Positions 18,864 to 38,340 of a stretch of 64,000 nucleotides of DNA are shown one piece after another. Position 1 is the stretch's first letter. Every line of letters begins with the position of its first letter. The position numbers and the translations under genes were made by a program. The notes below the pieces were generated by a model, which was not told the origin of the DNA, searched no databases, and was given only the letters and a program-made list of their open reading frames with translations. This DNA comes from a virus (Duplodnaviria > Heunggongvirae > Uroviricota > Caudoviricetes), in IMG/VR virus record IMGVR_UViG_2833096052_000002, positions 38,750 through 102,749 of that record. One strand, written 5' to 3'.

Positions 18864-19806
18864 TCAAATTCACCTCAATTTTTGGTTCATCAATAAACTT
18901 TGCCAATAGTCCTTCATGGTAGAATACCTTGTCACTTTCAGTAATTTCTTCTCCCAAGAAATATCTAAGTACGAATGGCATCATATAGTTGTCTAAACAT
19001 TTGAACTCAATACTATATTCTCCATTTTCTTTGTAGATTTTTTTACAGTATCCGTCAGTACCATTGATTTTGTGGAGCGAAAATAATTCAACTCTGAATG
19101 GAATATTAGATTTTGTACTTAATCTTTCTTCAACACAATTTCTCACAAGACTTAACATGTGCAAATTACTTGCCGTTGTCATATCATAAACAATCTCATC
19201 ATTTGAAAAGAATACAATTCTCTCTTCACCAATGATGTCATATAATAACGATAATGTCTGATCCATAAGGTACTTTTCATAGGTGATATGTCTTTTAGGA
19301 TTACAATTACCAAGAATAACCTGGCGAACATATTTACTATTTGCAATATGTTCGTTATCCGTGAATTGAGAAATAAAATCTTCCCATGTATCAGTCCCAC
19401 GAAATATATTCTTATCATATTCGTGTAAAGATGAAAAATTAGCCTTTCTCATATCAATACTTATAAAAACTCTTCCAGTATTAGTTGGCTTAAATATGTC
19501 TTTATTAGATAAATTTTTATGAATCACAGTGAATTTATTCATATCTTCCGCATTAAATCTCTGATATGCTTCTGACTCCTTGATACTTGTAATAGCTGCA
19601 TCCTTTACATGATTATATTCTTCAAAATAATCCTGCTCACAATTATACCCCTGTAATTCACTTGCAAATATAATCCACTTGTCAACAGTTCCATAGAATT
19701 CATCAAAAAGCTTAATTCTATCTAAAAAATATGGCTCTTGGAATAATCTAATTGGTATATTGCAATCCTTACAGAATCTTTCTTTTGCTCTATTTGATAT
19801 TTCCAT
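18844..19806 (-). CDS. hypothetical protein (320 aa)
   Basis: ORF track. Confidence 0.45.
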   Translation of the reverse strand: MEISNRAKERFCKDCNIPIRLFQEPYFLDRIKLFDEFYGTVDKWIIFASELQGYNCEQDYFEEYNHVKDAAITSIKESEAYQRFNAEDMNKFTVIHKNLSNKDIFKPTNTGRVFISIDMRKANFSSLHEYDKNIFRGTDTWEDFISQFTDNEHIANSKYVRQVILGNCNPKRHITYEKYLMDQTLSLLYDIIGEERIVFFSNDEIVYDMTTASNLHMLSLVRNCVEERLSTKSNIPFRVELFSLHKINGTDGYCKKIYKENGEYSIEFKCLDNYMMPFVLRYFLGEEITESDKVFYHEGLLAKFIDEPKIEVNLNEEIEN

Positions 19807-20849
19807 CAGATATCTCCTTTCACAATTCTCTCATTTACATACATCTTAAATTCATTGATTTTCTTATAATTAGGTTTGTCAGGCAAAGATGTATTTTCTT
19901 TTGCATATTCAAAACGTTTTTCATATTCATTCAATAAATCATAGAACTCAGAAATAGGTTGCCTATTTTTATCTAAATATTCTCCATTTCTAATACTCAT
20001 GAGTAAATCGTGTTCATCTGATCTATAAGTGATAATCTCTTCCTTTTCAAGAATATCAATACACATCATATATAAACGAATCAGATGTGCCATATGTTTA
20101 CCAAGTTTATCATGAGCAACTGCTTTTTCATTTCGTTTGCCAAATTTACTGTAACTACTTACAATGGATTTCATTTCGTTCCACATTCCAGCCCAATCTC
20201 TTAATGGGTAATGTTTCAAATTTACATCCATAAAAATTTCACTGTCATATCCTTCCTGAACAGCTTTATCAATATACAGTTTCAAATCACTTTCATTGTA
20301 TGGATAATATCTATTTTTAAATTCATATTGAGCATTGTTAATACTTCTCAAAATATATGCTTCATTTTCTGCCTGACCAACTAACCTTGCAGCTTTGTTC
20401 TCCATGCGTCTTAACTGTGAAGACGAATAACCACCAAAAGTATGAATACAAACTTTTGATAAAAACATTTTTCTATTGTCTAAAAGTTCTCTTCCAATAT
20501 CAGACAAATGCAAATAATGTTCTGGTAGACAACCGAGTTGTTCAATTGTATTAGGATTATTCGATGTAAGAAGCTGAATCATTTTGTTAAATGAATATAC
20601 TGTGGTGTCTGTATCGGTATTTACGACCTGTTCAAAATCTGTTCCAAGTAAAATATCTGATTTGCTGTTGAGTGCAATACCTCTCACATCTAAATCAGAT
20701 CCTTCTTTATCCATTCCATATGCATGACTTCCACCAAGAGTTAAGATAATGATATTGTCACCCAAATTCTTATCTGTTCTCAGGAAGTCATACTCTTTTG
20801 ATTTTAATTTGTCCTTAATCTGTTTAATTGTCATTGTCTTAACCTCCAA
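19806..20849 (-). CDS. Pol-beta superfamily nucleotidyltransferase domain protein
   Basis: LTLGGSHAYGMDKEGSDLDVRG = GS-x(9-13)-DxD minimal NTase motif. Confidence 0.5.
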   Translation of the reverse strand: MEVKTMTIKQIKDKLKSKEYDFLRTDKNLGDNIIILTLGGSHAYGMDKEGSDLDVRGIALNSKSDILLGTDFEQVVNTDTDTTVYSFNKMIQLLTSNNPNTIEQLGCLPEHYLHLSDIGRELLDNRKMFLSKVCIHTFGGYSSSQLRRMENKAARLVGQAENEAYILRSINNAQYEFKNRYYPYNESDLKLYIDKAVQEGYDSEIFMDVNLKHYPLRDWAGMWNEMKSIVSSYSKFGKRNEKAVAHDKLGKHMAHLIRLYMMCIDILEKEEIITYRSDEHDLLMSIRNGEYLDKNRQPISEFYDLLNEYEKRFEYAKENTSLPDKPNYKKINEFKMYVNERIVKGDI

Positions 20850-21723: not shown

Positions 21724-22107
21724 TTACCTGCTAAACAAATATTCATCACACTTATATCCGTTCTGATTTAACCAGTCTGCAACTAAATGTCTGTGACAAA
21801 AATCCGTTGGTTTTTCGTAACAAATTAAACAAATGTCGCATTCACCAACATTAAAACCATAACATATCCTTGATAAATCCAGAATAACATCTGTTGCATT
21901 TAATTTACTTAACACTTGCTCGTTAAAACATTTAATGTAATATTCGTTGTCATGATTTTTCTTCCATTCCATAAAGAAATCATATCTTGGCGCAAGTTTC
22001 TTATACTGCAATCCTGTATACCAATCAGGTGCTTTACCACAAATGCTAATTGGAACAATATTATCTGGCAAGGATTTTAACTTTGCAAAATAACTCGTAT
22101 AAATCAC
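21724..22107 (-). CDS. hypothetical Cys/His-rich protein (127 aa)
   Basis: ORF track. Confidence 0.4.
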   Translation of the reverse strand: MIYTSYFAKLKSLPDNIVPISICGKAPDWYTGLQYKKLAPRYDFFMEWKKNHDNEYYIKCFNEQVLSKLNATDVILDLSRICYGFNVGECDICLICYEKPTDFCHRHLVADWLNQNGYKCDEYLFSR

Positions 22108-22182: not shown

Positions 22183-22214
22183 ATAAAAAAGGACTGACCA
22201 ACTGTTCGTCAGCC
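22183..22214 (-). terminator. rho-independent terminator
   Basis: minus-strand hairpin CTGAC-GAACAGTTG-GTCAG followed by TCCTTTTTT; downstream of the 128-aa gene. Confidence 0.5.
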
Positions 22215-22228
22215 AGCCCATAAAAACA

Positions 22229-22615
22229 TTACTCTAACTCTGCAAGTGCCTTATCCAGTTCCTCATCAGACATATTTTCAAGTGCTGCATCTTGTCTCTT
22301 AGCCTTGATTTCAAGCAATCTCTGTCTCATCTCAGCATTTTTCTTAGCGTCTTCTCTCTTCTTTTTCTCATCCAGCTTCACACTAACAATATACTTGACA
22401 ATTTCAATCTTATTAGAAATTTCCTCATCTTCCTTTGACTTGGTATTCAGAAGACTTTCTTCCTCAGACTTCTTTGCTTCTGCATTGAGTGTTTTAAACA
22501 CTGAGTCCAGATTTGTGAGAGACAAATCCCACAAGTCAATTACGTTAATCATTCCTCTAAATGGGAACTGATAGTTTGCTCTTGTTGCATTGATAAATAA
22601 TTCGTTGTTTGTCAT
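22229..22615 (-). CDS. coiled-coil Lys/Glu-rich protein
   Basis: ORF track; last gene before terminator. Confidence 0.45.
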   Translation of the reverse strand: MTNNELFINATRANYQFPFRGMINVIDLWDLSLTNLDSVFKTLNAEAKKSEEESLLNTKSKEDEEISNKIEIVKYIVSVKLDEKKKREDAKKNAEMRQRLLEIKAKRQDAALENMSDEELDKALAELE

Positions 22616-22636
22616 AATAATAATCTCCTTTTCTAA

Positions 22637-24694
22637 TTAAAACTTAATCTTCATTACACGCTCTGTTGCACCCTTAACCTTAACAACTAAATCTGCTCTC
22701 TTTGTCATAGAGAATCCAATTCCTGAAAGCTGATCATCAGTATCTTCTACATGACACTTAGCACCTAAAGCCTCAAATACTCTCTTGTGCTTTTCAAGGT
22801 CACTCTTTAAGAACTCATTGTAGTAACCGTTTGGCTCTTCGTTATTCACACAATCCTTCAGGAAGAAGAACAAATGTCTATGACCAATTCCATCCTGCTC
22901 ATCAAAGTAGTTTGGACTATAACTAATTACTGATACAGGTACAAACTGATTTGTATTTACGCCCCAAATCTCACGACTTGAAATAGATGAATTACCTGCT
23001 AGTTTTTCCTTAATTGAGAAGTTGCCATTCGAATCAAGTGTTACTTCTGCAACCTGAACCTTTTCACCTGTTCTCATTGAGTTACTATAGTCAAACTTAT
23101 AAATTTCGCCATTAAACTCAATCTCGGCTCTGAATCCATGTCTTACACTTCCTGAATACTGATGTACAAAGAACTTATAAACACCTGGCTTCATTCTTGA
23201 TAAATCTTCCCAAGTAATATTCTCCACTGCAATCTCTCCACATGGATCAATGACATCAACATCTAACTGACCACCCATAGAAGTAATTCTTGGTGCTTTA
23301 TAACTGCCATAGTAGATTTCTGTACCATTTGGCTCAATACAATGTGCATCAAGGTCGTAATTATCATGACCATCTTCGTTCCACTGAATAGAAAATCTGA
23401 GAATCCCATCGACATTACCGCCAGCAGCTTTTACATTCTGCTTCATATCAGAGTCAGTAATGTTTCCTGAATAAGCCCAAGATAATCCATTATTCCATTT
23501 GAACATTGTCTTAGCGTCTGGATTAACAGGTGCAATCATAGAAACAAAGTTCTTCTCATGTTTATTCTCTACAAAAGCTTCAATCTCCTTTGCAGTTGGA
23601 AGTACCTTATCAATGAAATCCTGTGCCGAAATCTCCTCAACCTTAGAAAACTTCTTAGGACTTACAGCAACATCTTTTTCCATCTGACCAAAAATATCAT
23701 CTGCGCCAACCATTCTTCTTGCAGCACTCTTATTTGAGAACAGTACATTATTTACAGTAATATCATTCAGATTAGCAAATCTTCTCTGTAATGAATCCAT
23801 ATATCCAAGTTCTGTAACGGTTTTCTTTGCATCCTCAAGCATCTTCTTTGTAAAAATAGCCTTTGGACGCTTATAATTGCTTGGAGCGACAATCTGTTCA
23901 TACTTCTTAACTGCTGCATCGAGATCCATATCCTCACTTACATTAATAAGAAGTGTTCCAATAGAATGATTTCTAATTCTACCGATAGCCATACCTGCTG
24001 TTACCGACTTCTCCCAAGCATATAAATCCTTTTCAGTATCAGAAGTCAGCTTATCATATTCCTTCTTATACTTCTTGAACTCTGTGAGTACGCCTTTCCA
24101 CTCTTCGCCCTTGTAAAGTGTATTTGAATTGATAAGTTCAAGAATTGTATCAAGTGCTTCCATAGTAATCTCATCAAGAGAACGCTTAAATACATTTCTT
24201 GTATCTCTGAACTGTCCTTTAACTTCCTCGTTAGAACGACTACTTCTATTTACGAATTTGCTTGGAAGCTCTAAGAAGAAATGATCCCACTGATGAGATT
24301 TTCCATTGATTTCCTCAAAGTTAAAATCTGTACCAATCTTAGGGAACTTAGTTGTATAAATATCTGTAACTGTATGAGTCTTTACAAAAGCGTCAAGTGC
24401 ATCGCATACTGGCTGATATGTTGTATCACCAAGATTCAGTTCCCAAATTGTATGAATCTGATTATCCTTGATAGTGACAGCAGAACCAATATTCTTAATA
24501 AACTGTCTACAACAACTACAATCATGTTCTCTACGCTCTCTGAAAATCTCATTTGTACCAGCAGGGAAGCTATCAAGATATGTATTCCATAATTCATCCT
24601 TATCTACATTTACTTCAAATAAATGTGTTGCCTCTTTCTGCATTTCATCGAAATGCTTCTGTAAAGCCTTTTTAAACATCATAAATCCATCCAT
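22637..24694 (-). CDS. large hypothetical protein (about 685 aa) with possible TerD-like C-terminal domain
   Basis: Start placed at ATG 24694 (MDGFMMF, SD AAGAGGT 7 nt upstream) rather than track start 24883. The C-terminal segment ...YDLDAHCI...GGQLDVDVID...VYKFFVHQY...HGFRAEIEF loosely parallels TerD DLDAS / GDGDDE / beta-sandwich pattern. Confidence 0.55.
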   Translation of the reverse strand: MDGFMMFKKALQKHFDEMQKEATHLFEVNVDKDELWNTYLDSFPAGTNEIFRERREHDCSCCRQFIKNIGSAVTIKDNQIHTIWELNLGDTTYQPVCDALDAFVKTHTVTDIYTTKFPKIGTDFNFEEINGKSHQWDHFFLELPSKFVNRSSRSNEEVKGQFRDTRNVFKRSLDEITMEALDTILELINSNTLYKGEEWKGVLTEFKKYKKEYDKLTSDTEKDLYAWEKSVTAGMAIGRIRNHSIGTLLINVSEDMDLDAAVKKYEQIVAPSNYKRPKAIFTKKMLEDAKKTVTELGYMDSLQRRFANLNDITVNNVLFSNKSAARRMVGADDIFGQMEKDVAVSPKKFSKVEEISAQDFIDKVLPTAKEIEAFVENKHEKNFVSMIAPVNPDAKTMFKWNNGLSWAYSGNITDSDMKQNVKAAGGNVDGILRFSIQWNEDGHDNYDLDAHCIEPNGTEIYYGSYKAPRITSMGGQLDVDVIDPCGEIAVENITWEDLSRMKPGVYKFFVHQYSGSVRHGFRAEIEFNGEIYKFDYSNSMRTGEKVQVAEVTLDSNGNFSIKEKLAGNSSISSREIWGVNTNQFVPVSVISYSPNYFDEQDGIGHRHLFFFLKDCVNNEEPNGYYNEFLKSDLEKHKRVFEALGAKCHVEDTDDQLSGIGFSMTKRADLVVKVKGATERVMKIKF

Positions 24695-24922
24695 GTTTTG
24701 TACCTCTTCTTTCTTATATTTATTTTTGTTAATTGTTTCTACTGTTATATTCTCCGTTTTATAAATTAAAAGGTTTATTTTATTGCCCTTTGATAGAGTT
24801 AGTAGGTTATGACACCTACTAGCCCTTGAATTATTTATTCTTCTTACGTTTTCCTGCAATAAAACCTGCTCCAAAGCATACACCGAGACAGATTACGAAA
24901 ACTCCAATGTTTAATACAATCA

Positions 24923-25672
24923 TTACTTATTACCTCTCTGTCTCTTCATATCATCAAGGATCTGACGAGCATTGCGCTCTCTTTCAGAATTAGCAAGTCT
25001 TCTCTCATTTGCCTGTGCGCTAGAATCATATGCAATTCTACTTCCTTCTGCACGTTCTCTTGTCTTTCTTGCTCCTTCACGAACTCTTTCAAGCATTCTA
25101 TCGCTCTCATTATTCGTATTAAGACTATCCATACTCTGATGAAGTTCGATAATCTGACTATCGGCTTCCATCTGAAAAAGAACCTGTTCCTTTTCCTCTT
25201 TAAGTTTCTGCAATTCTTCGGCTGCCTGATCACGAATGTCTTTCTGGTGAGCCTGTGCTTCTTTCATCTCTTCGATTGTATCTTTTAGTACATTAATCTT
25301 ATTCTCCAAAGTAGACTTCTTCATTGCATACTGCATTGCTTCATTTTCTTTATTTTCATCAAGACAAGCATTAATCTGCTGTGTAACACGCATAATATCT
25401 TTATTTGCCTGATATAAATCCTTTTCTGCTGTATCACGCTTTCCTGAAATTTCAGCATATGTAGCAGATGCCTTGTTATAAAAATCTTCCTTTTCTCTAA
25501 TGGCTGCGTTGTAATAATCTCTAGCACCTTCTGGTGTCTGTGCATCCTGACGCATTACTTCATCCGTTCTTCCTTTAAACTTTACTCGAAGCTGTTTACC
25601 AAAAGGAGTAAAGAAAAGAATCAGTGCAATTAATACAATCGCCACAATTATAATAAACATAAAATTTGTCAT
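24923..25672 (-). CDS. membrane-anchored coiled-coil protein, PspA/IM30-like
   Basis: N-terminal TM (FMFIIIVAIVLIALILFF) then long charged coiled coil with PspA-like periodicity. Confidence 0.35.
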   Translation of the reverse strand: MTNFMFIIIVAIVLIALILFFTPFGKQLRVKFKGRTDEVMRQDAQTPEGARDYYNAAIREKEDFYNKASATYAEISGKRDTAEKDLYQANKDIMRVTQQINACLDENKENEAMQYAMKKSTLENKINVLKDTIEEMKEAQAHQKDIRDQAAEELQKLKEEKEQVLFQMEADSQIIELHQSMDSLNTNNESDRMLERVREGARKTRERAEGSRIAYDSSAQANERRLANSERERNARQILDDMKRQRGNK

Positions 25673-25681
25673 ACAATCCTC

Positions 25682-26263
25682 CTACTCTGCATCAATTCCA
25701 TACTGATTACATAGTGCCTTTAATCCACCGTTATAGCCACTTCCTACAGCCTTAAACTTCCATTCACCATTATGTTTATAAATTTCAGCTACGACTAACG
25801 CAGTCTCGGTAGAGAAGTCTTCACTTAAATCAAAACGAATAAGCTCCTCGCCTGTCTCTTCGTCTACTACACGCACATATGCGTTTCCAACCATACCGAA
25901 GTTCTGAAGTCTACTCTCAGCATCATAAATTGTGACCGTCACAGCAAGAGTCTCATAGTCTGATGGGATTTTATCAAGTTTAATCTTAATAACCTCATCA
26001 TCTCCATCTCCCTCACCTGTACGATTATCTCCCATATGCTTTACACTCTTTGAACTATGTTCAAGATTACCATAGAAAATGAAATCCTCATCCTTGCCAA
26101 CCTTGCCATTCTCTTTTGTCATAAACACAGAGGCATCGAGATCAAAATCTGCTTCTCCATCATAATGATTAATATCCCATCCAAGTCCAACAAGAATGTT
26201 TTTTAATGATGGTCTACCCTTTGTTAAATCTACTCTCTGTCCTTTACTTAACGAAACTGACAT
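25682..26263 (-). CDS. TerD-family protein (paralog 1)
   Basis: MSVSLSKGQRVDLTK...LGWD...DFDLDASVF...GDNRTGEGDGDDEVI. Confidence 0.8.
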   Translation of the reverse strand: MSVSLSKGQRVDLTKGRPSLKNILVGLGWDINHYDGEADFDLDASVFMTKENGKVGKDEDFIFYGNLEHSSKSVKHMGDNRTGEGDGDDEVIKIKLDKIPSDYETLAVTVTIYDAESRLQNFGMVGNAYVRVVDEETGEELIRFDLSEDFSTETALVVAEIYKHNGEWKFKAVGSGYNGGLKALCNQYGIDAE

Positions 26264-26275
26264 AATTAAATCCTC

Positions 26276-26851
26276 CTACTTGTATCTTCTTATTAATTCG
26301 CTAACACTTGAATCATTTGTTCCCTGACCGATAGCGTTAAATTTCCACTCTCCGTCTTTCTTATAAACCTCTGCAAATACCATTGCTGTCTTACCAGCAT
26401 AATCATCTGAAAGATTGTATTTACAAATTTCCTTACCAGTTGACTCATCAACAAGTCTAATGTACGCATTCTTGATAAGTCCAAAATCCTGCTTTCTTGA
26501 AGTGCAATCATAGATATTTACTACAAATACAATCTTCTCAACCTTATTTGTAATATTCGCAAGGTCAACTGTAATCTGCTCATCATCGCCGTCTCCATCT
26601 CCTGTGAGGTTGTCGCCATGATGATACACACATCTATCTTCTGCTGATCTGTCACCATAATAAACACATGTACGATACTTATCATCTTTTCCTAAAATAA
26701 TTGCTGAAGCATCGCAATCAATGTTTGGCTTAGAATTAAAAAATCCTTTCTTAACAGCATCCCATCCAAGTCCTACCATAATCTTTGTAAGACCACCTGC
26801 TACTTCCTTAGATAAATTAATTTTCTGTCCTTTGACTAAATTTACTGACAT
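26276..26851 (-). CDS. TerD-family protein (paralog 2)
   Basis: MSVNLVKGQKINLSK...GLGWD...GDNLTGDGDGDDEQI. Confidence 0.8.
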   Translation of the reverse strand: MSVNLVKGQKINLSKEVAGGLTKIMVGLGWDAVKKGFFNSKPNIDCDASAIILGKDDKYRTCVYYGDRSAEDRCVYHHGDNLTGDGDGDDEQITVDLANITNKVEKIVFVVNIYDCTSRKQDFGLIKNAYIRLVDESTGKEICKYNLSDDYAGKTAMVFAEVYKKDGEWKFNAIGQGTNDSSVSELIRRYK

Positions 26852-26869
26852 ATATATTCTCCTTCCACT

Positions 26870-27484
26870 TTATAAATCCAGACCAAAATTTCTACCAATA
26901 GCAGCTAAACCACCATTGTAACCTGAACCAACTGCATTAAACTTCCATTCACCGTTCTTACGATACAACTCACCTGCAATAACACCTGTCTCTAATGAGA
27001 AATCCTCATTAAGTTCATATTTGAAAAGTTCCTCATTTGTATCAGCGTTGTATGCTCTAATGTACGAATTATCAACCATTCCGAAATTCTGTAAACGATT
27101 TTCTGCATCATAAATTGTCGCTGAGAAGCTAATCTTTGTAATATTAGATGGAATCTTATTTAACTCAACAATCATTGTCTCGTCATCGCCATCACCTACA
27201 CCTGTTCTATTATCACCAGAATAAATCAATGCTCCACTTGGATGCTGTGGCTGACCATAAAATACGAAATCTTGTTCGCCTGTTACCTTTCCTGAATCAT
27301 CGGTAAAAAATGCTGACACATCCAAATCAAAATCTGCATTACCATCGTATCTATTTGTATCCCATCCAAGACCAAATACGACTTTGTTTAAACCTGCATT
27401 GCCTTTTGTAAGGTCAATCTTCTGACCTTTAACTAAACTAATTGACATATTATTTTTCCTCCTTATTCTTGGGAAGGCTGTCAA
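26870..27484 (-). CDS. TerD-family protein (paralog 3)
   Basis: ISLVKGQKIDLTK...GLGWD...DFDLDVSAF...GDNRTGVGDGDDETM. Confidence 0.8.
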   Translation of the reverse strand: MTAFPRIRRKNNMSISLVKGQKIDLTKGNAGLNKVVFGLGWDTNRYDGNADFDLDVSAFFTDDSGKVTGEQDFVFYGQPQHPSGALIYSGDNRTGVGDGDDETMIVELNKIPSNITKISFSATIYDAENRLQNFGMVDNSYIRAYNADTNEELFKYELNEDFSLETGVIAGELYRKNGEWKFNAVGSGYNGGLAAIGRNFGLDL

Positions 27485-27641
27485 CCTTCCCTTTTAATAA
27501 TTTAAAAGAAATTGGGAATGTGAGTAACGTTAGAAAAATAAATGGAATAAAGCGTGTAATACATGCTACAACAACACTAATTGAAAAACATATAAGAGTA
27601 ATAATCTCTACTGTTTTATAACTTTTATCTCTCATTACCAT
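27450..27641 (-). CDS. small two-TM membrane protein
   Basis: hydrophobic 63-aa ORF between ATPase and TerD genes. Confidence 0.35.
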   Translation of the reverse strand: MVMRDKSYKTVEIITLICFSISVVVACITRFIPFIFLTLLTFPISFKLLKGKVDSLPKNKEEK

Positions 27642-27657
27642 ATTCTCATCTCCTCAA

Positions 27658-30258
27658 TTACTTATTCTCTCTTTTTTTCTCAATAATCTTTCTAATAAGA
27701 TCAATTGGAATAACCATAAACGCTAGAATTACAACTACTACCCAATGTTTGAAATCTAAAGCTGTGACCTTAATAAGATTTTCTGCAAAATTGCAAAGAG
27801 CAAACGTCATTACAAAAATTCCAATTGCAATGGCTGAAAATAACTTGTTCTTTCCAATGCCATTGAATAAATTAATATGCTCTGTACGAATGTTAAATCC
27901 ATTAAATACCGCCATGAAGCATAATAAAGCAAATCTCGCTGTTATAGCTTCTGTCTCAGTCACAAACATATTAGCAATTGGGCTAAATGTAATAATTCCA
28001 TAGAGTGCAATAAATGCTACTGTACTAATTGCAATACGTTTCTTTGCTCCTCTTATGAATAAGCCAGAACCTTTCTTGATAGGTTTCTCTGTCATATACT
28101 CATCTTTTGGAGGTTCACCACCAAATGATAATGAATTAAGAGAGTCCATAATGATATTTACAATCAGAATCTGAACCGATGCGAGTAATGCACCTGTTGC
28201 AATCATTGGATAAATAACACTAAGAATCAGAAGTGAAATATTGATAGGTAACTGGAATTCAAGAAACATCATAATATTGTGCATAAATGTTCTTCCAAGT
28301 TCTACTGCCTTTACAACGCTTGCAAAGTTATCATCTGTTAATACAATGTCTGAAGCTTCTTTTGCCACATCTGATCCACCTTGCATACCAAAACCCACAT
28401 CAGCTCTCTTTAAAGCAGGACTATCATTTACACCATCACCTGTCATTGCAACTGACTTTCCAATCTCTTGTGCTAATGTGACAAGTCTGAGTTTTGTGTT
28501 TGGTGAGCATCTTGAAATAACTCTCAATCGAGGAATTATACTCTTTACTTCATCATCTGACATCGCTTCAAATTCATCATTTGTAAGTGCTAAATCTCCA
28601 TCTTTGTAAATTCCACACTCTGTAGCAACTGCAACTGCTGTCTCAATACAATCGCCTGTAATTTCAATAACTTGAATACCAGCCTTATGTGCTATTTTTA
28701 CTGCACTCGGTACTTCATCTCTTACAGGATCTACAACACCAATAATTCCAAGGAATGTCATGTCATTTGGTATTTCATTCTCTACTAAATCACCATCTGC
28801 CATTGTAACTGCAATGCATCTCATCGCATTACTTGTCATTGCTGTAATTGCATTACTTAATGTGTCATTGTCGTTATTCTCTATAATTTCACCATTTGAG
28901 TCCATTACTTTTGTGCAATGCTCAATCAGTTTCTCAGGTGCGCCCTTATAATATGTAATTCCATCATTTGTTGTAAAAGCTGAATACTTATTACTACTAT
29001 TAAATACCTGCTTTAACCTAACTGGATATTTTTTCTGAATGTCAACATATGTTTCAGGATTTACAAGGCTAAGAACTGCTCTATCAATTGAATTACCACC
29101 TGTAATATTGTTTTCTGAATCAAATGTTGCACTATTATTTAAAGAAATGTTTGCCTTGATATTATTCCAAAGAACTGAATCCTTATTTACATCATTACCA
29201 AAGCCATCAATAATCTTCTTTGGAGTCATAATACCTGTCGTAAGAGTACCTGTCTTATCAGTACAGATAATATCAACATATGCTAACTCTGGAATTTTAC
29301 CAGGATTCTTAGCAAGAATATTGAATTTCTCCATCGTCTTTACATTTTGTTTTGTTACAAGTTTTACAATAAGAGGCAATCCTTCGGGAACAGCAGCTAC
29401 AATAATTGTTAATGCTACTGAGAAGTTCTGTGCGATTTTCTGAATAATATTCAGAACACCACCGCTAAAATATTCTCCAAATCCAACCTGTACAATTCCT
29501 GAAATTGTAAGTACCGCAAATGTAATAACGGCTGCGATTGTTCCCCACTTAGAAATGAAGTCGCTCAGATTATCAAGTGCAATATCAAGTGCTGTCTTTG
29601 GTGCTTCGAGTGTTTGCATTTTAACAAGTGTATCACCATTTACTGTATTTACACCTACATCAGTAACAATCATTTTTCCTTCGTCTGACATTACTGTTGT
29701 ACCAGCAAATAAGCAATTCTGATTCGTATAAGCATCTGTTGAAGTAGTTTTCTTATGAACGTATCCTTCAATTGGTGTTTTCTTGACCTCTTTTGTCTCA
29801 CCATTAATTGCAGCGTTGTTGACTGAAATTTTACCATCAACAAGATATCCATCTGCAAAAATTTCCTGTCCCATTCCGATACAACCGAGATCGCCAACTA
29901 CCAATTCATCCTTGTTAATTGTTTGAACTTTGCCATCACGAATTACATCACAATACCTGACTGATGTTTTGGCTCTCAACTCTGCTGCTGATTTTTGAAC
30001 ACCAAGTCCAGTCTTAACAGCAATACATGTTACAATTGCTAATACAACAAGAATCATAATTGGATCTGATAAATCCATTACCCCCATGACTCCAAGGAAT
30101 AACTGCAATACTGCAATTGCAATAAGAATCATTGTGATTTTCTCACTTAATGCCTTCTTTGCGAAGTCATACCACTTGTCCAACTTTGGTTCAGGAAGCT
30201 TATTACTTCCATGTAGTTCTCTACTTTTGAGAACTTCTTTACTACTCAATCCATTCAT
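27658..30258 (-). CDS. P-type cation-transporting ATPase, Ca2+-ATPase (type II) like
   Basis: phosphorylation motif ICTDKTGTLT, PEGLP in M4, KGAPE, DPVRDEV, hinge TGDGVNDSPALKRADVGFGM; 866 aa. Confidence 0.85.
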   Translation of the reverse strand: MNGLSSKEVLKSRELHGSNKLPEPKLDKWYDFAKKALSEKITMILIAIAVLQLFLGVMGVMDLSDPIMILVVLAIVTCIAVKTGLGVQKSAAELRAKTSVRYCDVIRDGKVQTINKDELVVGDLGCIGMGQEIFADGYLVDGKISVNNAAINGETKEVKKTPIEGYVHKKTTSTDAYTNQNCLFAGTTVMSDEGKMIVTDVGVNTVNGDTLVKMQTLEAPKTALDIALDNLSDFISKWGTIAAVITFAVLTISGIVQVGFGEYFSGGVLNIIQKIAQNFSVALTIIVAAVPEGLPLIVKLVTKQNVKTMEKFNILAKNPGKIPELAYVDIICTDKTGTLTTGIMTPKKIIDGFGNDVNKDSVLWNNIKANISLNNSATFDSENNITGGNSIDRAVLSLVNPETYVDIQKKYPVRLKQVFNSSNKYSAFTTNDGITYYKGAPEKLIEHCTKVMDSNGEIIENNDNDTLSNAITAMTSNAMRCIAVTMADGDLVENEIPNDMTFLGIIGVVDPVRDEVPSAVKIAHKAGIQVIEITGDCIETAVAVATECGIYKDGDLALTNDEFEAMSDDEVKSIIPRLRVISRCSPNTKLRLVTLAQEIGKSVAMTGDGVNDSPALKRADVGFGMQGGSDVAKEASDIVLTDDNFASVVKAVELGRTFMHNIMMFLEFQLPINISLLILSVIYPMIATGALLASVQILIVNIIMDSLNSLSFGGEPPKDEYMTEKPIKKGSGLFIRGAKKRIAISTVAFIALYGIITFSPIANMFVTETEAITARFALLCFMAVFNGFNIRTEHINLFNGIGKNKLFSAIAIGIFVMTFALCNFAENLIKVTALDFKHWVVVVILAFMVIPIDLIRKIIEKKRENK

Positions 30259-30387
30259 CTGTTTTACTCTCCTTTTCTATAATTTTTTATATATGAATGT
30301 TATTAGTTACATATCTATATTCTCTTTTTAATTTGGGAATTTTATTGAGCTGAATCGCTCAGAAATTTTTTACAATGAAACGAAGTT

Positions 30388-30606
30388 TTACTGTGGTTTC
30401 TGTTCTTCGTCTATAAAATATGTATTTCCATATTCATTGACTTTCTCGGTCAAATTCATTCTTGCATAATCAAGAACGTCTGATGCGAAATTTGCCATAC
30501 ACGGATAACATAGATAATGCTTAGTTTTTCCTACATTCATTTCTACTAATCCAACTTCTATTCTTCCGCAAATCTCACATGACTTATTTTTAATCCATTG
30601 ACTCAT
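30388..30606 (-). CDS. small zinc-ribbon protein
   Basis: CEICGR...CYPC. Confidence 0.35.
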   Translation of the reverse strand: MSQWIKNKSCEICGRIEVGLVEMNVGKTKHYLCYPCMANFASDVLDYARMNLTEKVNEYGNTYFIDEEQKPQ

Positions 30607-30632
30607 ATAACTCCGCTCCTCTCCTTTCTAAT

Positions 30633-30893
30633 TTACCAAATACCATTTACCGTCTTATCAATGGCTTCTCTCATCACTCCACCTGTCATTTTGTTCATTG
30701 TATCTGCAACAAGACCTTTGAATTCTGCTCTTATTCGCCTATTATAATGAGTACATGGCGTTGAACAATAATTATTTCTTCTACATTTTTCACAGTTGCC
30801 ATTCAATTTCCACTGTTCATTTTCCTGAATCTGTTCCATAATGTCCATAATGCCTTTCACCTCTCTTCCGAAGAAATCGAACATTCTTACCAA
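30633..30893 (-). CDS. small Cys-rich protein
   Basis: CEKCRRNNYCSTPC. Confidence 0.35.
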   Translation of the reverse strand: MVRMFDFFGREVKGIMDIMEQIQENEQWKLNGNCEKCRRNNYCSTPCTHYNRRIRAEFKGLVADTMNKMTGGVMREAIDKTVNGIW

Positions 30894-31096
30894 AACAGTT
30901 CTTCAAATTCGTAAAAATATTCTAGTGAATACCACTCTTCTTTACCTATATCATTTTTAACCTTTACACAATCTCCATCAAAACCAATTACCAAATATTG
31001 TTTCCCCTCTGTCAAATTAAACTGTTCACCTCTATTATTTGAAGTAACTGGTTTTCTAATGTGAACATTTGCTACATTATGCATAACACAATTCAT
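30887..31096 (-). CDS. small hypothetical protein
   Basis: ORF track. Confidence 0.35.
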   Translation of the reverse strand: MNCVMHNVANVHIRKPVTSNNRGEQFNLTEGKQYLVIGFDGDCVKVKNDIGKEEWYSLEYFYEFEELFW

Positions 31097-31434
31097 ATTT
31101 TTTTACCTTTCTTTCCAAAAAAAACAAACTTTACTCACGATTGCCTTCTCTTTCATAATTGTAAACACCAACTACTTTTGCTATTTCTATACAGCACTCA
31201 TAATCATCCAAATCAGGTGATTGTAATAACTCAATAATTTTATTTACTTTTTCTTCAGGACTCATTTTTCCACCTCTTATAAAACCTTACTTTCTTGTAA
31301 GCCTAATTATCAGTTCTACAAGTCTCTCCTTACTCATAGCATGTAAATGCTCTCTCTTCTCATCATCTGAGCAGTTCTCAATAATTTTTAAATCACTCTC
31401 TGGCATTTTTAATATCCTCCTTATATTTTTCTAA

Positions 31435-31509
31435 CTAGGCTGGTGGGACTTGAACCCACAAAACCTGCGGTCAAAGCGCAGTGCGTCTAACCAATTCCGC
31501 CACAGCCCA
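31435..31509 (-). tRNA. tRNA-Gln (anticodon UUG)
   Basis: Minus-strand cloverleaf: acceptor TGGGCTG/CAGCCTA with U1:A72 and G73 discriminator, anticodon arm CTGCG-CTTTGAC-CGCAG, T-arm GTGGG-TTCAAGT-CCCAC; CCA not encoded. Confidence 0.7.
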
Positions 31510-31552
31510 TTAGAGATGGTGTGGAATTTCGCCACACCAAGTTATTCTCTAT

Positions 31553-32431
31553 TTATTGGTCTGAATCAGCATTCTTTGTAACTACAGTATCGCTACCCTG
31601 TACTGTTACCCATCCATGTTTAAGCCTTGCTTCTGCCTCTTTCATACGAATGAGCTGATCAGTAATTGAGCTGTTAATCTTCGCATTTGCATCCGCTTCT
31701 GCCTGTGCTGCAATGACCTTTGCATCTGCATCACCCTGAGCTTTTGTAACCTCTGCCTCAGCATCGGCTTTTGCCTTATCAATATTTGTCTGATTCTGAA
31801 TTGCCTGAGTCTCTGCATCCTGCTGAGCCTTAATCTTAGCATTTATAGCTTTCATTGTATCTTTATCAACATCAATATTAATTAAAGATACGTTGCTAAT
31901 CGTAATGCCATATGGCTCAAATTTCTTTGCAAGATAATCTGAAACTGCATTGTTAATATTCGCTCTTTCAGAACCAAGAATGTCGGATACTTTGTAATTT
32001 GCAACAATCTCTTTAGTCCAAGAAACAATATTAGGTTTGATAAAACTATCTCTTACCTCTTTACCACTCTGACCTTTGAATCGGGTGAAAACGTCTGCAA
32101 CACTATTTGGCTTGTACTGATATGTATAAGTAAGCTCCAATGTCATTGACTTACCCTCTGATGAACTTGCTGTAAAACTATCATCGTCTGGTGAATCTCC
32201 CTTTTTAGAAGCTGTAAGATATGACTGCTCAAGACCAACTGTATATAATGTTGTTTTTACCATTGGACTCTTCCAATGCCAACCCTGATTAAGTACCTCT
32301 TTCTTTACTCCACCGTTTGCATTGTACTGAACTGCTACATAGCCAGCAGGTACTTTTACTAAAGATTTCATACATATGATTACTCCAATTACAAGTACAA
32401 TTACTACTACAAATCCTCCTAGTTTCTTCAT
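31553..32431 (-). CDS. SPFH/band-7 (stomatin/prohibitin-like) membrane protein
   Basis: N-terminal TM then VPAGYVAVQY... SPFH core; Ala/Gln-rich coiled-coil tail. Confidence 0.75.
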   Translation of the reverse strand: MKKLGGFVVVIVLVIGVIICMKSLVKVPAGYVAVQYNANGGVKKEVLNQGWHWKSPMVKTTLYTVGLEQSYLTASKKGDSPDDDSFTASSSEGKSMTLELTYTYQYKPNSVADVFTRFKGQSGKEVRDSFIKPNIVSWTKEIVANYKVSDILGSERANINNAVSDYLAKKFEPYGITISNVSLINIDVDKDTMKAINAKIKAQQDAETQAIQNQTNIDKAKADAEAEVTKAQGDADAKVIAAQAEADANAKINSSITDQLIRMKEAEARLKHGWVTVQGSDTVVTKNADSDQ

Positions 32432-33362: not shown

Positions 33363-33839
33363 CTATAACCTCTGATTTTTAGCAATTCTTTTAATCTTCA
33401 TATTCTCTGGAATATCCATTGGTCTGAAGTCAGATCTTATAATCCTTGATATAATTACTGGTTTAACACCGCATTTTGTATAACACATGACTATATCTCC
33501 TACAAATATGTTCTCCATAAACATATTCCATTTCTCGGATGTCGGCACTCTCCAGACATACTCTTTGTCCGTCTGCTGATTCGGATGTTTACCGTATATG
33601 TATGTAACAACTTTCTTATTCTGTCTTTCATATCTGTACTGCTTGACATCTTCTACGTCAAACTCTTTAAGTATTAAGTATCTTATATATCCATCTACCA
33701 ACTCTTTTTTATGATTGATAATAATTGGCTTGTCCAACTCCCCATACTTAAGGAAATATCTCTTTACTCTGTTCATCTTTGCCTCATTTGGTACAGACTC
33801 GGCAAGATAATCTGGGATTATAATGTCTGCTAACTTCAT
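33363..33839 (-). CDS. hypothetical protein, possible ParB/Srx-like fold
   Basis: ELVDGYIRYLIL resembles the ParB N-terminal DGxxR motif (weak). Confidence 0.35.
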   Translation of the reverse strand: MKLADIIIPDYLAESVPNEAKMNRVKRYFLKYGELDKPIIINHKKELVDGYIRYLILKEFDVEDVKQYRYERQNKKVVTYIYGKHPNQQTDKEYVWRVPTSEKWNMFMENIFVGDIVMCYTKCGVKPVIISRIIRSDFRPMDIPENMKIKRIAKNQRL

Positions 33840-33863
33840 ATTTATTTGTTCTCCTTTACGTAT

Positions 33864-35285
33864 TTATGCATTTGCCATCTTGTCAAAACTTCTTTTCATG
33901 AAGTCATAATTTACTTTCTGTGAAGGGCTAAATTTCTTTTGATTTTTGTATTTATTAATCCATTCCTCAAACTTGTCCTCATTCTCATTCTCACAAGCGT
34001 ATGCCATTAATGCTATTAAAGCTGTCTGACACTGTTGATAGATTGGAGCATCGACTTCAATTCCATTATGATCAAGGCAATAATCAACAAGGTCAGAATA
34101 AGTATTTACGTCCTCATCTGTTGCTTCTGGATTTGCGTTTTCTTGTACAAACGAGAGTGTTGATTCGTTGGAATTTTCAACCTCTAAAGTTCTTGATTTT
34201 ATTGTGTTTTTAAGGTCAAACATTTCCAACATAAGCGAAATATATGTATTTATCTTGTTTTGTATCAATTTTTTATCAGATGTACCAGGCTCTTTATCGA
34301 GCATGTCATAGCTCCATTTATCAACTATTTTGTCATGTAAATTGTTTACTAGCTCATCTAAAAACGTAGCAAATTTGCTATCTTCTAATCCCAACTTAGT
34401 GAATCTATGGAACACAGCAAACCAAACTGGGATATCTTTGAACACAAATAAGTTTTTGAATTTTTCTCCACAAACCTTTGCAATTCGATTTCCATATGTA
34501 TTAATTATGTTAAATTCTTCATCAGAAGAACTATCTTCAATAAACTCATTCCTGTCTTTTGGATTCTTTTTCCAATCATCTATATGGAATACGGTCATTA
34601 CAGAATTTGCAACTGTCTGCTCGTAAGTTCCATTTTTCCTCTTTGGACTTGAATATGTAACACAATTTTTAAAAAACTCATTGTTTGCAATGTTTTTAAT
34701 TTTTCTTGCATATGTAGGAATCCATGTAAGAGCTTTCTGGTTTGAACCCATACTCTTATTACGGTTATATCTGCGAACCAACTTGCTTATTTCTTGCATG
34801 GTACAATTTTGATGAATTACTATACGAATCTGATAATCATCAAATTTCTTTTTCAATTCATCAGGCAATTGCTCGTAAGTTTTATTCTTTATGTCAAACT
34901 CACAATTGTCCCAAAGAATACTTCCGTTCTCATCTTTAATAAGATGTCCCTTTTCATCTCTTCGCTTCTTCTGATACTGAATAACGCTATTCTCAAAAGA
35001 TTTAGTTGTTTTCCAGTTCATATGTCTGAATTTATTCAGAGCTGTTGTTCTCTGAATACCATCAACTATGTACTGTTGAGTTAAATTATCTCCAAGCTCT
35101 TCCTCACCAAGAATAATAGGAGGAATATAATCTTCATTAAGTACCGTATAGATTAGCTCGTTTATTGCTCCATTGTCCCAACAGAACATTCTCTGAACGT
35201 CCTGATTTTCTGAAATATCCTCACTATTTACACTCTTTAAATATGAAGATAATGCCATTGCTTGTTCTCTCACTTTTTTTGCCAT
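33864..35285 (-). CDS. DUF262 domain protein (GmrSD/DndB-type ParB-like NTPase/nuclease N-domain)
   Basis: QQYIVDGIQRTTAL = DGQQR signature of DUF262. Confidence 0.65.
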   Translation of the reverse strand: MAKKVREQAMALSSYLKSVNSEDISENQDVQRMFCWDNGAINELIYTVLNEDYIPPIILGEEELGDNLTQQYIVDGIQRTTALNKFRHMNWKTTKSFENSVIQYQKKRRDEKGHLIKDENGSILWDNCEFDIKNKTYEQLPDELKKKFDDYQIRIVIHQNCTMQEISKLVRRYNRNKSMGSNQKALTWIPTYARKIKNIANNEFFKNCVTYSSPKRKNGTYEQTVANSVMTVFHIDDWKKNPKDRNEFIEDSSSDEEFNIINTYGNRIAKVCGEKFKNLFVFKDIPVWFAVFHRFTKLGLEDSKFATFLDELVNNLHDKIVDKWSYDMLDKEPGTSDKKLIQNKINTYISLMLEMFDLKNTIKSRTLEVENSNESTLSFVQENANPEATDEDVNTYSDLVDYCLDHNGIEVDAPIYQQCQTALIALMAYACENENEDKFEEWINKYKNQKKFSPSQKVNYDFMKRSFDKMANA

Positions 35286-35314: not shown

Positions 35315-35899
35315 TTAATATCTCTGGGTTAAGATTCTTGTGTTCTCATAAGACTGAATTGCCTTTATATTATTTGAGTACTCTTTTGCACTCATATGTA
35401 AATATTCTCTGATTTCCATTGGTTTATATCCTTCAGAAAGCAACGCAACAATTTTCCTTTGCATATGCGATAGCTGATTTAAGTATCTCTGTATTTTTGT
35501 ACCACCCATCATACTTTGTGCTGCTATTTCAAAAGTATCAAAATCAGAAGGTATCATTTCACTGATTTCCATCCCATCTTCACCTATTAAAGCATTCATA
35601 CTTTCAATATTTTTCTGAGGGATTTTTTTTAATCTGTTTCTATCTCGTATTTCAGTTTTAAACTTGCGTTTAATGTTGCTTGCTAAGAAACAATCAAAAC
35701 TACATTTATTGTTCTCATCATACCTAAATACCGAATCGGTTAAAACTCCAAGTGCAATTGAATAGAAATCATCAATATCCATTCCATATAAACCACCGAT
35801 TTTATTTAACATTGGATTACACATTTTTTTGAGCTTTGCCATTTCGTTATTACAATACTTTTCGAGTATTTCTTTTTGTTGAATTTCCATTTTTACCAC
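35315..35899 (-). CDS. sigma-70 family RNA polymerase sigma factor
   Basis: C-terminal region-4 HTH LSHMQRKIVALLSEGYKPMEIREYLHMSAKEYSNNIKAI and region-2-like N-half. Confidence 0.6.
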   Translation of the reverse strand: MVKMEIQQKEILEKYCNNEMAKLKKMCNPMLNKIGGLYGMDIDDFYSIALGVLTDSVFRYDENNKCSFDCFLASNIKRKFKTEIRDRNRLKKIPQKNIESMNALIGEDGMEISEMIPSDFDTFEIAAQSMMGGTKIQRYLNQLSHMQRKIVALLSEGYKPMEIREYLHMSAKEYSNNIKAIQSYENTRILTQRY

Positions 35900-35921
35900 T
35901 CTCCTTATGTTTGATATATAA

Positions 35922-36542: not shown

Positions 36543-36574
36543 TTTTCATCACCCTTTCTTCTTATTTATAACAA

Positions 36575-36630
36575 GAGGCATCAAGGAGTTGAACCTTACA
36601 CGATTGGCTTTCCTGTAAAGCTGATGCCTC
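36575..36630 (-). ncRNA. tRNA-like element with no anticodon arm (T-arm plus 8-bp acceptor-like stem)
   Basis: GAGGCATC...GATGCCTC closing stem; minus strand has AAGG-TTCAACT-CCTT T-arm-like hairpin and a GCTTT-ACAGG-AAAGC hairpin; only about 56 nt. Confidence 0.25.
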
Positions 36631-36764
36631 ATCCATCCGTTAGTGGATTAAACTATGGTAGAACTATAGCAACTACACATTCTGCTCTTACAAGGCAATA
36701 TGTATGTACAAAGAAACAAGTACCTTGCGTTCTGCACTTACATCGGGTGTGATTCAGTGCATAG

Positions 36765-36836: not shown

Positions 36837-36978
36837 ATATTTTATTAAATTAAAATTAAATAAGTGAAAAATATGCTGAATTGCTTGAAATCATTTGACA
36901 TTCCGTCAATTTATATGTATTATAATTATGAGTGTATTCCAGTACGTTCATAATACAATTCAACTAAATATTTTTAGG

Positions 36979-38130: not shown

Positions 38131-38143
38131 TGTCGTATACATA

Positions 38144-38338: not shown

Positions 38339-38340
38339 AA

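Follow-up and report, generated by a model that had tools for sequence, protein, structure and literature searches.

A conserved operon of viral contigs joins a probable calcium pump to TerD proteins and a PspA-like protein

We found that a P2-type cation pump (a P-type ATPase that probably exports Ca2+), TerD proteins, and a PspA-like protein with a transmembrane (TM) anchor are encoded together in a conserved operon. The operon lies within positions 38,750 to 102,749 of the IMG/VR virus record IMGVR_UViG_2833096052_000002, which is classified in the Caudoviricetes. We call this whole stretch of 64,000 nucleotides the window, and all coordinates refer to it. We compared the gene order of 80 viral loci that were recovered with the window's pump. 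In 73 of the 74 loci with enough flanking sequence (at least 3.2 kb downstream of the pump), TerD and the PspA-like protein are encoded directly after the pump, in the same order and orientation. An earlier interpretation, made from the sequence alone (the sequence-only reading), had described all of 22229–32431 as a phage-borne Ca2+ and membrane-stress module. This interpretation is partly supported: its core was right, its boundaries were too wide, and the novelty of the pump was overstated.

All of the open reading frames (ORFs) that the sequence-only reading named are present on the minus strand, with the motifs that it quoted. In the direction of transcription, the core consists of:

27658–30258, minus strand: P2-type (PMCA/LMCA1-like) cation pump, 866 amino acids (Pfam, NCBIfam TIGR01517, and relatives in PDB)
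27450–27641, minus strand: two-helix membrane protein, 63 amino acids (ORF directly after the pump)
26870–27448, minus strand: TerD paralog 1, 192 amino acids (PF02342, 251.8 bits; GDNRTGVGDGDDE and DLDVS motifs)
26276–26851, minus strand: TerD paralog 2, 191 amino acids (PF02342, 229.5 bits; GDNLTGDGDGDDE and DCDAS motifs)
25682–26263, minus strand: TerD paralog 3, 193 amino acids (PF02342, 279.5 bits; GDNRTGEGDGDDE and DLDAS motifs)
24923–25672, minus strand: PspA/IM30 (ESCRT-III superfamily)-like protein with an N-terminal TM anchor, 249 amino acids (sub-threshold match to PF04012, AlphaFold2 model, and Foldseek)

Neighboring genes from the pump through to the PspA-like gene are separated by just 1–18 nucleotides, so this stretch reads as one operon. 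The core (from the pump at 27658–30258 down to 24923) is one operon of about 5.3 kb, with five or six genes. It includes the tiny TM protein that had been noticed between the pump and the TerDs, which is the 63-amino-acid protein.

The order of the core genes holds among pumps down to ~45% identity, in two architectures. In architecture A, which includes the window, the pump is followed by the 63-amino-acid protein (if present), three TerDs, and the PspA-like protein. In architecture B, the pump is followed by a vWA protein of 255 amino acids, one TerD, and the PspA-like protein. The vWA protein takes the place of two TerDs and contains a clear vWA-TerF-like domain (PF10138, 204 bits). We also compared a profile of the PspA-like family to 185,579 species genomes (one genome for each species) and found just nine loci, all from metagenome-assembled genomes or isolates of the Clostridia type. 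Seven of these nine loci retain the pump region, and all seven show the order pump–TerD–PspA-like, including with pumps that are 46–48% identical. Outside this operon, the PspA-like family is essentially absent.

All five genes (the pump, the three TerDs, and the PspA-like gene) are under purifying selection, with ratios of nonsynonymous to synonymous substitution rates (dN/dS) of 0.008–0.19; for TerD paralog 1, the range is 0.008–0.04. In two of the viral loci (L030 and L058), the pump is only 76–85% identical to the window's pump, whereas the block of three TerDs and the PspA-like protein is 97–100% identical. In L030, the synonymous divergence (dS) is 1.4 for the pump and 0.03–0.1 for the TerD/PspA block. 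So the pump allele has been swapped by recombination, with the pairing retained. (The breakpoint in both loci is between the pump and TerD paralog 1.) These results support the view that the pump, TerD, and the PspA-like protein are a real, selected functional unit and not a chance run of genes, and in this respect they support the sequence-only reading.

The carrier of the operon is a prophage-like element of about 160–185 kb from the gut bacterium Agathobacter rectalis. The window's pump protein is identical to one that is annotated in A. rectalis, and the gene order of the window recurs at about 625–648 kb in a 747-kb contig from an A. rectalis isolate (assembly GCA_003471975.1). Relatives come from IMG/VR, as viral contigs whose sizes cluster near 160 kb and near 183 kb. 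Many genes of the window match PHROG families. Two PHROG scans, together with two look-ups past the ends of the window, found no virion or packaging genes in the window, in ~10 kb past its low-coordinate end, or in ~7 kb past its high-coordinate end. So the claim that the module is phage-borne is likely but indirect: it is supported by the IMG/VR classification of the relatives, by the PHROG families, and by the integration into the A. rectalis contig, and not by structural genes. We found no relatives of the window at the DNA level among GenBank phages, and the matches to P-type ATPases in the GenBank phage collection were mostly unannotated fragments or bacterial contigs.

The pump matches the Pfam families expected of a cation-transporting ATPase (Cation_ATPase_N, E1-E2_ATPase, Hydrolase, and Cation_ATPase_C) and has the motifs DKTGTLT, PEGLP, KGAPE, DPVR, TGD, and TGDGVNDSPALK. 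The hallmarks that the sequence-only reading had listed for this protein (DKTGTLT, PEGLP, and TGDGVNDSPALK) are among them. The best NCBIfam model is for PMCA-type Ca2+-ATPases (TIGR01517), at 498.5 bits versus a cutoff of 507.05. This is ~100 bits ahead of the second-best model, for PMR1-type Ca2+/Mn2+ pumps (398 bits); the SERCA-type model gave 321 bits. Since the cutoff of TIGR01517 is missed, we describe the protein as a PMCA-like P2 pump for which Ca2+ is the probable substrate, and not as an equivalog. Its best relatives with solved structures are ACA8 from Arabidopsis, human SPCA1 and PMCA1, and LMCA1 from Listeria, with full-length alignments and E = 1e-97 to 1e-85. We also considered a heavy-metal pump of the P1B type, which the sequence-only reading had named as an outcome that would overturn it. 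The protein lacks the CPC motif, and the P1B models scored 115–172 bits, as compared to 498 for the PMCA-type model, so we rejected this possibility.

The functional residues of the pump are conserved across the family. Among 71 distinct family sequences, with identity down to 45%, DKTGT, KGAPE, DPxR, TGD, and TGDGxND are each kept in 70–71, and PEGLP is present in all 71. In transmembrane helix M6, the motif (V/I)NI(I/V)MD(S/G)LNS has an invariant Asn and Asp in all 71 sequences; the window's pump has VNIIMDSLNS, whose Asn and Asp align to those in VNLIMDTL of ACA8. Together with the Glu of PEGLP, these two residues form what we take, from the established literature on SERCA and PMCA, to be ion site II of Ca2+ pumps. 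At the position in M5 that is equivalent to the site-I glutamate of SERCA (E771), the pump has Leu (in the stretch FQLPINIS). We therefore predict a single ion site like that of PMCA and LMCA1, with one ion moved in each cycle. The loop of the actuator (A) domain reads NGET instead of TGES (NGET in 60 and NGES in 11 of the 71 family members), which keeps the catalytic Glu and the Gly and replaces Thr with Asn. Overall, the window's pump shares with LMCA1, ACA8, PMCA, and SPCA1 the ten-helix C-terminal architecture, DKTGT, the PEGLP glutamate, the Asn and Asp in M6, and the lack of a site-I Glu in M5. It differs from them in its NGET/NGES loop and in lacking a calmodulin-binding tail, and it is only ~30% identical to them. 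Judging from these residues and models, the pump is probably an exporter of Ca2+ (possibly Ca2+/Mn2+) with a single ion site.

The 63-amino-acid protein that follows the pump is found only in close (~98%) relatives and not in other variants of the module, and it had no family match in scans of Pfam, PHROG, and NCBIfam. It is lineage-specific and is possibly a pump-associated micropeptide.

All three TerDs of the window score far above the gathering cutoff of PF02342 (279.5, 229.5, and 251.8 bits, versus 25.3), so the TerD fold, whose absence would also have counted against the sequence-only reading, is present in each. As that reading had stated, each one retains GDGDDE: the putative Ca2+-binding motifs GDN(x)TG(x)GDGDDE and D-x-D-x-S are found in all three. 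According to the title of PDB entry 2kxt, the characterized ligand of TerD is Ca2+.

For the PspA-like protein, the match to PF04012 has E = 8.4e-6 but only 26 bits, which is under the gathering score of 33.9. So we call it "PspA-like." Its homolog in variant B scores 29 bits, a distant relative in MT835556 scores 42 bits, and many relatives in its cluster carry a precomputed match to PF04012. In the AlphaFold2 model (pLDDT 83.4), helices are predicted at residues 2–21, 23–43, 47–105, and 109–247, which would form a TM helix and then a long helical hairpin (47–105 and 109–247). The top three matches of this model in PDB, as found by Foldseek, are Vipp1 (6zvr and 8qbs) and PspA (4whe), with TM-scores of 0.58–0.73 on the target and weak E values (~0.02). 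The identification as a TM-anchored PspA/IM30-like protein, which the sequence-only reading had made, holds up in this qualified form. The protein resembles PspA and Vipp1 in its predicted helical-hairpin fold, its PF04012 signal, and its membrane-stress context. It differs in having a true N-terminal TM helix (residues ~5–23, hydrophobic and followed by residues rich in Lys and Arg) in place of the amphipathic helix α0. We considered whether it might be a diverged TelA, but this had no support (hhalign probability of 0.3%). Its PADLOC match to the coiled-coil protein PbeC (18.9 bits) was treated as noise.

The nearest outliers of the TM-anchored PspA-like family are gp247 of Bacillus phage G and a protein from MT835556. 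In both loci (L098, which is gp243–gp250 of phage G, and L102, from MT835556), an ABC permease and an ABC ATPase are followed by a gene without an assigned identity, the PspA-like gene, and genes for OmpA-domain proteins. This is the same context that was noted for TM-bearing PspA/Snf7 homologs, with genes for ABC transporters and OmpA (PMC11237479). In phages, membrane transporters are thus a recurring partner of the TM-anchored PspA subfamily. That broad survey of phage-shock-protein systems mentions no partners related to Ter, TerD, tellurite, or calcium (PMC11237479).

The core operon resembles the Ter stress systems. In Bacillus subtilis, yceCDEFGH encodes three TerD paralogs, a TerC protein (YceF, also known as MeeF), YceG, and the TelA-like protein YceH. 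Like the window, the Ter systems (terZABCDE(F) of plasmids and enterobacteria, and yceCDEFGH) combine tandem TerDs (three in yceCDE), a membrane cation exporter, and a helical membrane-associated protein. Unlike them, the window lacks TerC, TerB, TelA, and YceG, as well as the vWA proteins TerF and TerY; instead, it has a P2-type ATPase at the TerC slot and the PspA-like protein at the TelA slot, and the module rides on a prophage-like element of ~160–185 kb. TerC is absent from the window and from every related locus that we examined, and the pump occupies its slot. YceF/MeeF is a TerC-family Mn2+ exporter and metalation factor (PMC10550928), and a streptococcal P-type Mn2+/Ca2+ ATPase is under the control of the Mn riboswitch that elsewhere controls TerC genes (cited in PMC10550928).

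More distant relatives of the pump strengthen the kinship with Ter systems, as relatives of the module carry Ter-specific genes (vWA-TerF-like, YceG, TelA, StiP, and C-C lyase). In MT836648, a GenBank contig from human feces, YceG, TelA, and three TerDs are followed by the start of a P-type ATPase, and the StiP/PELOTA protein and TIM-barrel C-C lyase of Ter clusters are encoded upstream. In MT840059, a pump that is just 35% identical to the window's is followed by three TerDs. Searching IMG/VR with this pump identified 13 more viral contigs, of 67–355 kb (most are over 200 kb). In all 13, whose pumps are ~30–35% identical to the window's, 2–4 TerD genes adjoin the pump on one side or the other. 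In one of them (L104; 260,841 bp), Pfam confirms YceG and TelA upstream of the TerDs, and a T4-type RNA ligase/kinase is adjacent. Bacillus phage YungSlug encodes TerD...TerD-TerC, which shows the alternation of TerC with the pump. The simplest reading is that P2-type pumps and TerC are interchangeable exporters in Ter systems, with TerD as the constant cytosolic partner. For the core operon itself, we propose, at about even confidence, that it is a mobile-element variant of the Ter ("tellurite resistance") envelope-stress system in which the P2 pump replaces TerC and the TM-anchored PspA-like protein replaces TelA.

In the pump–TerD×3 locus of a 355-kb IMG/VR contig (L105), a coiled-coil protein of 220 amino acids with an amphipathic N-terminus (8522–9184 of that contig) is encoded directly upstream of the pump. 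It has no Pfam match at E < 0.001, and it might be a soluble partner of the PspA type.

Given these components, we propose the following mechanism for the operon. The pump would export cytoplasmic Ca2+ (and possibly Mn2+), one ion per cycle. By binding Ca2+, the three cytosolic TerDs would serve as sensors or buffers and signal when divalent cations rise in the cytosol, as is expected when a membrane leaks. The PspA-like protein would assemble on the inner face of the membrane and stabilize or seal it, and the pump would then bring the ion level back to its low resting state. The gain for the element would be that the membrane and the ion gradients of the lysogen or infected cell are kept intact under stresses such as holin-independent damage, membrane-targeting effectors of abortive infection, bacteriocins, bile, or superinfection. 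If the beneficiary is the phage, then the cell would be kept energized and membrane-targeting abortive infection would be resisted; if it is the lysogen, then the benefit might be resistance to bile, bacteriocins, or superinfection. The gene content, the domain identities, the catalytic and ion-site residues, the co-conservation, the purifying selection, and the kinship with Ter systems are direct observations, while we infer from sequences which ion is moved, that TerD interacts with the pump and the PspA-like protein, when the genes are expressed, and how the element benefits.

In the plasma membrane of eukaryotes, the Ca2+ sensor ALG-2 recruits ESCRT-III to sites of damage. By analogy, we speculate that the operon might be a prokaryotic or viral counterpart of this Ca2+-triggered repair, with TerD sensing the leak and recruiting the PspA-like protein, gating the pump, or both. 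The shared logic would be a Ca2+-binding sensor, a polymer of the ESCRT-III family, and a Ca2+ pump to end the signal. As TerD has no homology to ALG-2, the likeness is purely a working analogy, and we consider this specific idea unlikely. If it were true, then the tellurite, phage-inhibition, and colicin phenotypes of ter would arise because the sensing of divalent cations is linked to an exporter (TerC or a P-type pump) and to a helical membrane stabilizer (TelA or the PspA-like protein). Also, DUF8224, a neighbor of the module that is found in over 500 sequenced phages (see below), would be another effector with a TerD fold that acts on this signal.

Several observations weigh against our proposal. 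Even work in model systems has not settled what TerD does. In variant B, the only TerD has a degenerate version of GDGDDE, which reads GKHYDE, so Ca2+ binding by TerD is perhaps inessential to the module. The PspA-like protein falls short of the gathering score of its family, and the matches to its predicted fold have the weak E values that are usual for coiled coils. The pump is narrowly under the cutoff of its best model, it has NGET in place of TGES, and its substrate could be Mn2+ or another cation. The one exception among the 74 loci (L011) has a deletion that leaves only TerD1, with TerD2, TerD3, and the PspA-like gene lost. Finally, we could not identify a promoter upstream of the pump, and the window lacks phage structural genes.

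We also considered that the operon might be a lysogenic-conversion module for defense, which would protect the lysogen from superinfecting phages or bacteriocins instead of serving phage replication. This idea draws on the setting of the element, which is integrated in the contig of an A. rectalis isolate and has an integrase, a helix-turn-helix (HTH) pair, and a PemK toxin; on the neighborhood, which holds genes associated with defense or counter-defense (GmrSD_N/NsnA-like, Sir2, and NAD salvage); and on the ter operons of plasmids, which confer resistance to several phages and to pore-forming colicins. But PADLOC, which we also used to look for known anti-phage defense systems, has no model that matches the pump, the TerDs, or the vWA proteins (nor the SPFH protein that is encoded nearby; see below), and the same pairing is found in viral contigs of 214–355 kb that show no sign of lysogeny. 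We consider a purely defensive role to be unlikely, and it overlaps mechanistically with our proposal, as both rest on membrane protection. Another alternative is that the operon handles Mn2+ or divalent metals in general, with the pump replacing TerC, the TerDs acting as metal buffers or chaperones, and homeostasis or the metalation of secreted or virion proteins as the benefit. The pump's position in yceCDEFGH-like clusters is that of TerC, whose family exports Mn2+; the streptococcal ATPase under the TerC-type Mn riboswitch points the same way (PMC10550928), and so does the second-best NCBIfam model, which is for PMR1-type Ca2+/Mn2+ pumps. Set against this, the best models and the solved relatives are Ca2+ pumps, the characterized ligand of TerD is Ca2+ (title of PDB 2kxt), and metalation would leave the membrane-remodeling PspA-like partner unexplained, so we view this alternative as rather improbable.

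A third possibility is host takeover via calcium: the pump would lower cytosolic Ca2+ and tune the host for replication, and TerD and the PspA-like protein would be incidental stress proteins. The same hypothesis was put forward for the Jug phages, along with high transcription of the phage pump (PMC12880540). Takeover seems quite improbable to us: it leaves unexplained that TerD adjoins the pump in all of the lineages that we examined and that the PspA-like family exists only beside the pump. A last explanation is that unrelated cargo genes came to lie side by side by chance, in an accessory region that varies. The region is mosaic: the DUF8224 and coiled-coil genes, the SPFH gene, the 63-amino-acid protein, and small ORFs all come and go. 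For the core, this explanation is effectively refuted by the gene order, which 73 of 74 viral loci keep and which holds even where pumps are only 45% identical, by the independent arrangements in other lineages, and by the strong purifying selection, and we give it almost no weight.

Calcium pumps in phages are not new. The sequence-only reading had called a P-type ATPase "very unusual" phage cargo, but this is outdated: Jug and other huge gut phages encode Ca2+-translocating P-type ATPases that are highly transcribed (PMC12880540), and when we scanned IMG/VR with pump queries, we found 153 and 214 viral stretches that encode related pumps. In the Jug phages, terD and pspA-like genes are also highly transcribed, and the same study mentions a few phages of 159–197 kb and pumps of Bacillota affinity (PMC12880540). 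The Jug phages resemble the window in having a P2-type Ca2+ pump in a phage of the human gut; their genomes also contain TerD genes, with a pspA-like gene beside terD. However, the Jug pump shares its transcript with a small protein encoded upstream, and the terD and pspA-like genes form separate operons (PMC12880540); in the window, the pump, TerD, and PspA-like genes are contiguous in one strictly conserved operon, in elements associated with Lachnospiraceae. PMC12880540 does not describe adjacency of the pump and TerD. So phage Ca2+-ATPases, and phage pairs of TerD and pspA-like genes, were published in 2025–26, and the pump itself is not the novelty. In the literature that we searched, which did not include the 2012 paper on Ter systems (Anantharaman et al.), we found no description of a fixed pump–TerD(–PspA-like) operon or of the alternation of TerC with a pump.

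TerD is abundant in bacteria, plasmids, and large phages, and its molecular role has been unclear since the ter operon was described. In several independent lineages, and in more than one gene order, we find TerD physically tied to a P-type pump of the Ca2+ type. Where Ter clusters are otherwise canonical, this pump and TerC alternate, and in one lineage the partner is an ESCRT-III-like homolog of PspA that is found only in this context. This turns the vague label of "stress protein" into a testable hypothesis about cation sensing, export, and membrane stabilization. It also extends the discovery of phage Ca2+ pumps from the huge phages of Bacteroides to elements of Lachnospiraceae and suggests partners for the pump. 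As the operon is compact and is found in a cultured and abundant commensal of the human gut, it should be experimentally tractable.

The sequence-only reading had also assigned genes on either side of the core to the module (those for the SPFH protein, the 685-amino-acid protein, and the coiled-coil protein). The features on the two sides are:

31553–32431, minus strand: SPFH/band-7 membrane protein, 292 amino acids (PF01145, 102 bits; phrog_200)
31435–31509, minus strand: tRNA-Gln(UUG) (ARAGORN and Rfam)
30388–31096, minus strand: three small ORFs of 72, 86, and 69 amino acids, two of them Cys-rich, between the SPFH and tRNA genes and the pump
22637–24694, minus strand: DUF8224 protein, 685 amino acids (PF26675/phrog_1735; ATG start)
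22229–22615, minus strand: coiled-coil protein, 128 amino acids, partner of DUF8224 (phrog_2018, 125 bits)
22191–22219, minus strand: intrinsic terminator (stem of 12 pairs, including 6 G-C pairs, and a T-run)

The minus-strand order is therefore SPFH, tRNA-Gln, the three small ORFs, the core from the pump to the PspA-like gene, DUF8224, the coiled-coil gene, and the terminator. The SPFH and DUF8224 genes are not core members, which is why the boundaries of 22229–32431 do not hold: DUF8224 and the coiled-coil gene are present in 16 of the 80 viral loci, and an SPFH gene lies within 10 kb of the pump in 14. The three small ORFs had no matches in a Pfam scan, are variable and rarely conserved in related loci, and lie outside the module.

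The 685-amino-acid protein, for which no family had been proposed, belongs to DUF8224. (The length is counted from the ATG; the mechanical ORF extends to a GTG at 24883.) A gap of 228 nucleotides separates it from the PspA-like gene. DUF8224 is found in 555 GenBank phage records, from many hosts, where it is annotated as hypothetical or "galactose-binding-like." The coiled-coil gene follows DUF8224 in all of our loci and in phages TsarBomba and Emiliahah, and it does end at a terminator, as had been claimed, with a 12-bp stem (22219–22191). We rejected this pair as part of the core. In Bacillus Herelleviridae, DUF8224 occurs with the same 128-amino-acid partner and no Ter gene beside it, and in the module-bearing loci it is a minority feature that can flank the module on either side. 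Loci that have it always place it next to the module without a gap of other genes: in the window's lineage it is downstream of the PspA-like gene, whereas five variant-B loci, among them that of the isolate Ruminococcus sp. AM36-2AA, have it upstream of the pump. DUF8224 and the coiled-coil protein are a separate and widespread two-gene cassette of phages.

DUF8224 probably carries a TerD-fold domain, according to structure prediction. Residues ~430–566 (~22997–23407 of the window) are predicted to form a TerD-fold β-sandwich with invariant acidic residues and a putative acidic site (D449, D478, D480, and E491), and the same lead was seen for the proteins of TsarBomba and Emiliahah gp213 (L001 and L002). 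Searching PDB with the DUF8224 sequence found nothing. The predicted domain is perhaps why DUF8224 repeatedly adjoins the module, and in our proposed mechanism it may respond to the same signal. The prediction is also a new annotation lead for a family that is found in hundreds of isolated phages.

The identity of the SPFH protein is solid (102 bits on PF01145, versus a cutoff of 23.6, and a hydrophobic N-terminus). Its gene is not immediately upstream of the pump, as the three small ORFs and the tRNA-Gln separate them. Across the 80 viral loci, an SPFH gene within 10 kb of the pump may be upstream or downstream. In B. subtilis, PspA is hard-wired to SPFH proteins (PMC8581546). The window resembles that PspA–YdjGHI (SPFH) system in that an SPFH protein is sometimes encoded near the PspA-like gene, so by analogy a loose functional tie to the module is plausible.

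The window as a whole is AT-rich (30–37% G+C), and nearly all of its transcription is on the minus strand. The GC skew is uniformly and strongly negative (-0.14 to -0.47 per 2-kb bin across the window), which is consistent with nearly all of the genes being on that strand. The rest of its cargo (NAD salvage and Sir2, a CCA-adding enzyme, an RlaP nucleotidyltransferase, a sigma-like factor, a run of tiny ORFs, and a tyrosine integrase, HTH pair, and PemK toxin) is of the kind that large temperate phages typically carry in their accessory arm.

A block of NAD-related genes at 11400–17206 looks like a phage set for replenishing NAD+ as a counter-defense:

11400–12140: NAD synthetase-like protein
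13004–14506: nicotinamide phosphoribosyltransferase
14469–15305: ribose-phosphate pyrophosphokinase
16466–17206: Sir2-family protein

Next to this block, 17475–20849 encodes a CCA-adding tRNA nucleotidyltransferase (462 amino acids), an unidentified protein of 320 amino acids, and an RlaP-type nucleotidyltransferase (PF10127). In many related loci, these three genes are found together with the pump module, and one relative (L178) has an RNA ligase just past the position that matches the low end of the window; together, these genes suggest a tRNA-repair set. Directly after the module's terminator, 21724–22107 encodes a protein of 127 amino acids from the "active DUF488-N3a" subclade (PF22751, 51.6 bits).

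On the other side of the module, 33363–35285 encodes a protein of 473 amino acids that weakly matches the GmrSD_N (DUF262-like) domain and scores 40.7 bits for NsnA in PADLOC; a DUF5839 protein follows it. This pair is conserved in many relatives and may be involved in defense or anti-defense. The region 35315–39333 contains a sigma-factor-like protein (35315–35899), a second tRNA-Gln(UUG) (36764–36836), a PemK-family toxin (37369–37758), a divergent HTH pair, and the tyrosine integrase (38341–39333). The integrase is in the middle of the AT-rich foreign region and not at its edge, so it does not mark an end of the element within the window. Finally, we considered whether the stretch at 45–52 kb, which at first seemed poor in ORFs, might have recoded stop codons or a giant gene. 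We rejected this: 45000–53000 holds a dense array of about 35 back-to-back ORFs of 60–90 amino acids on the minus strand, with almost no spacers and no larger genes, which resembles the early-gene array of a large phage.

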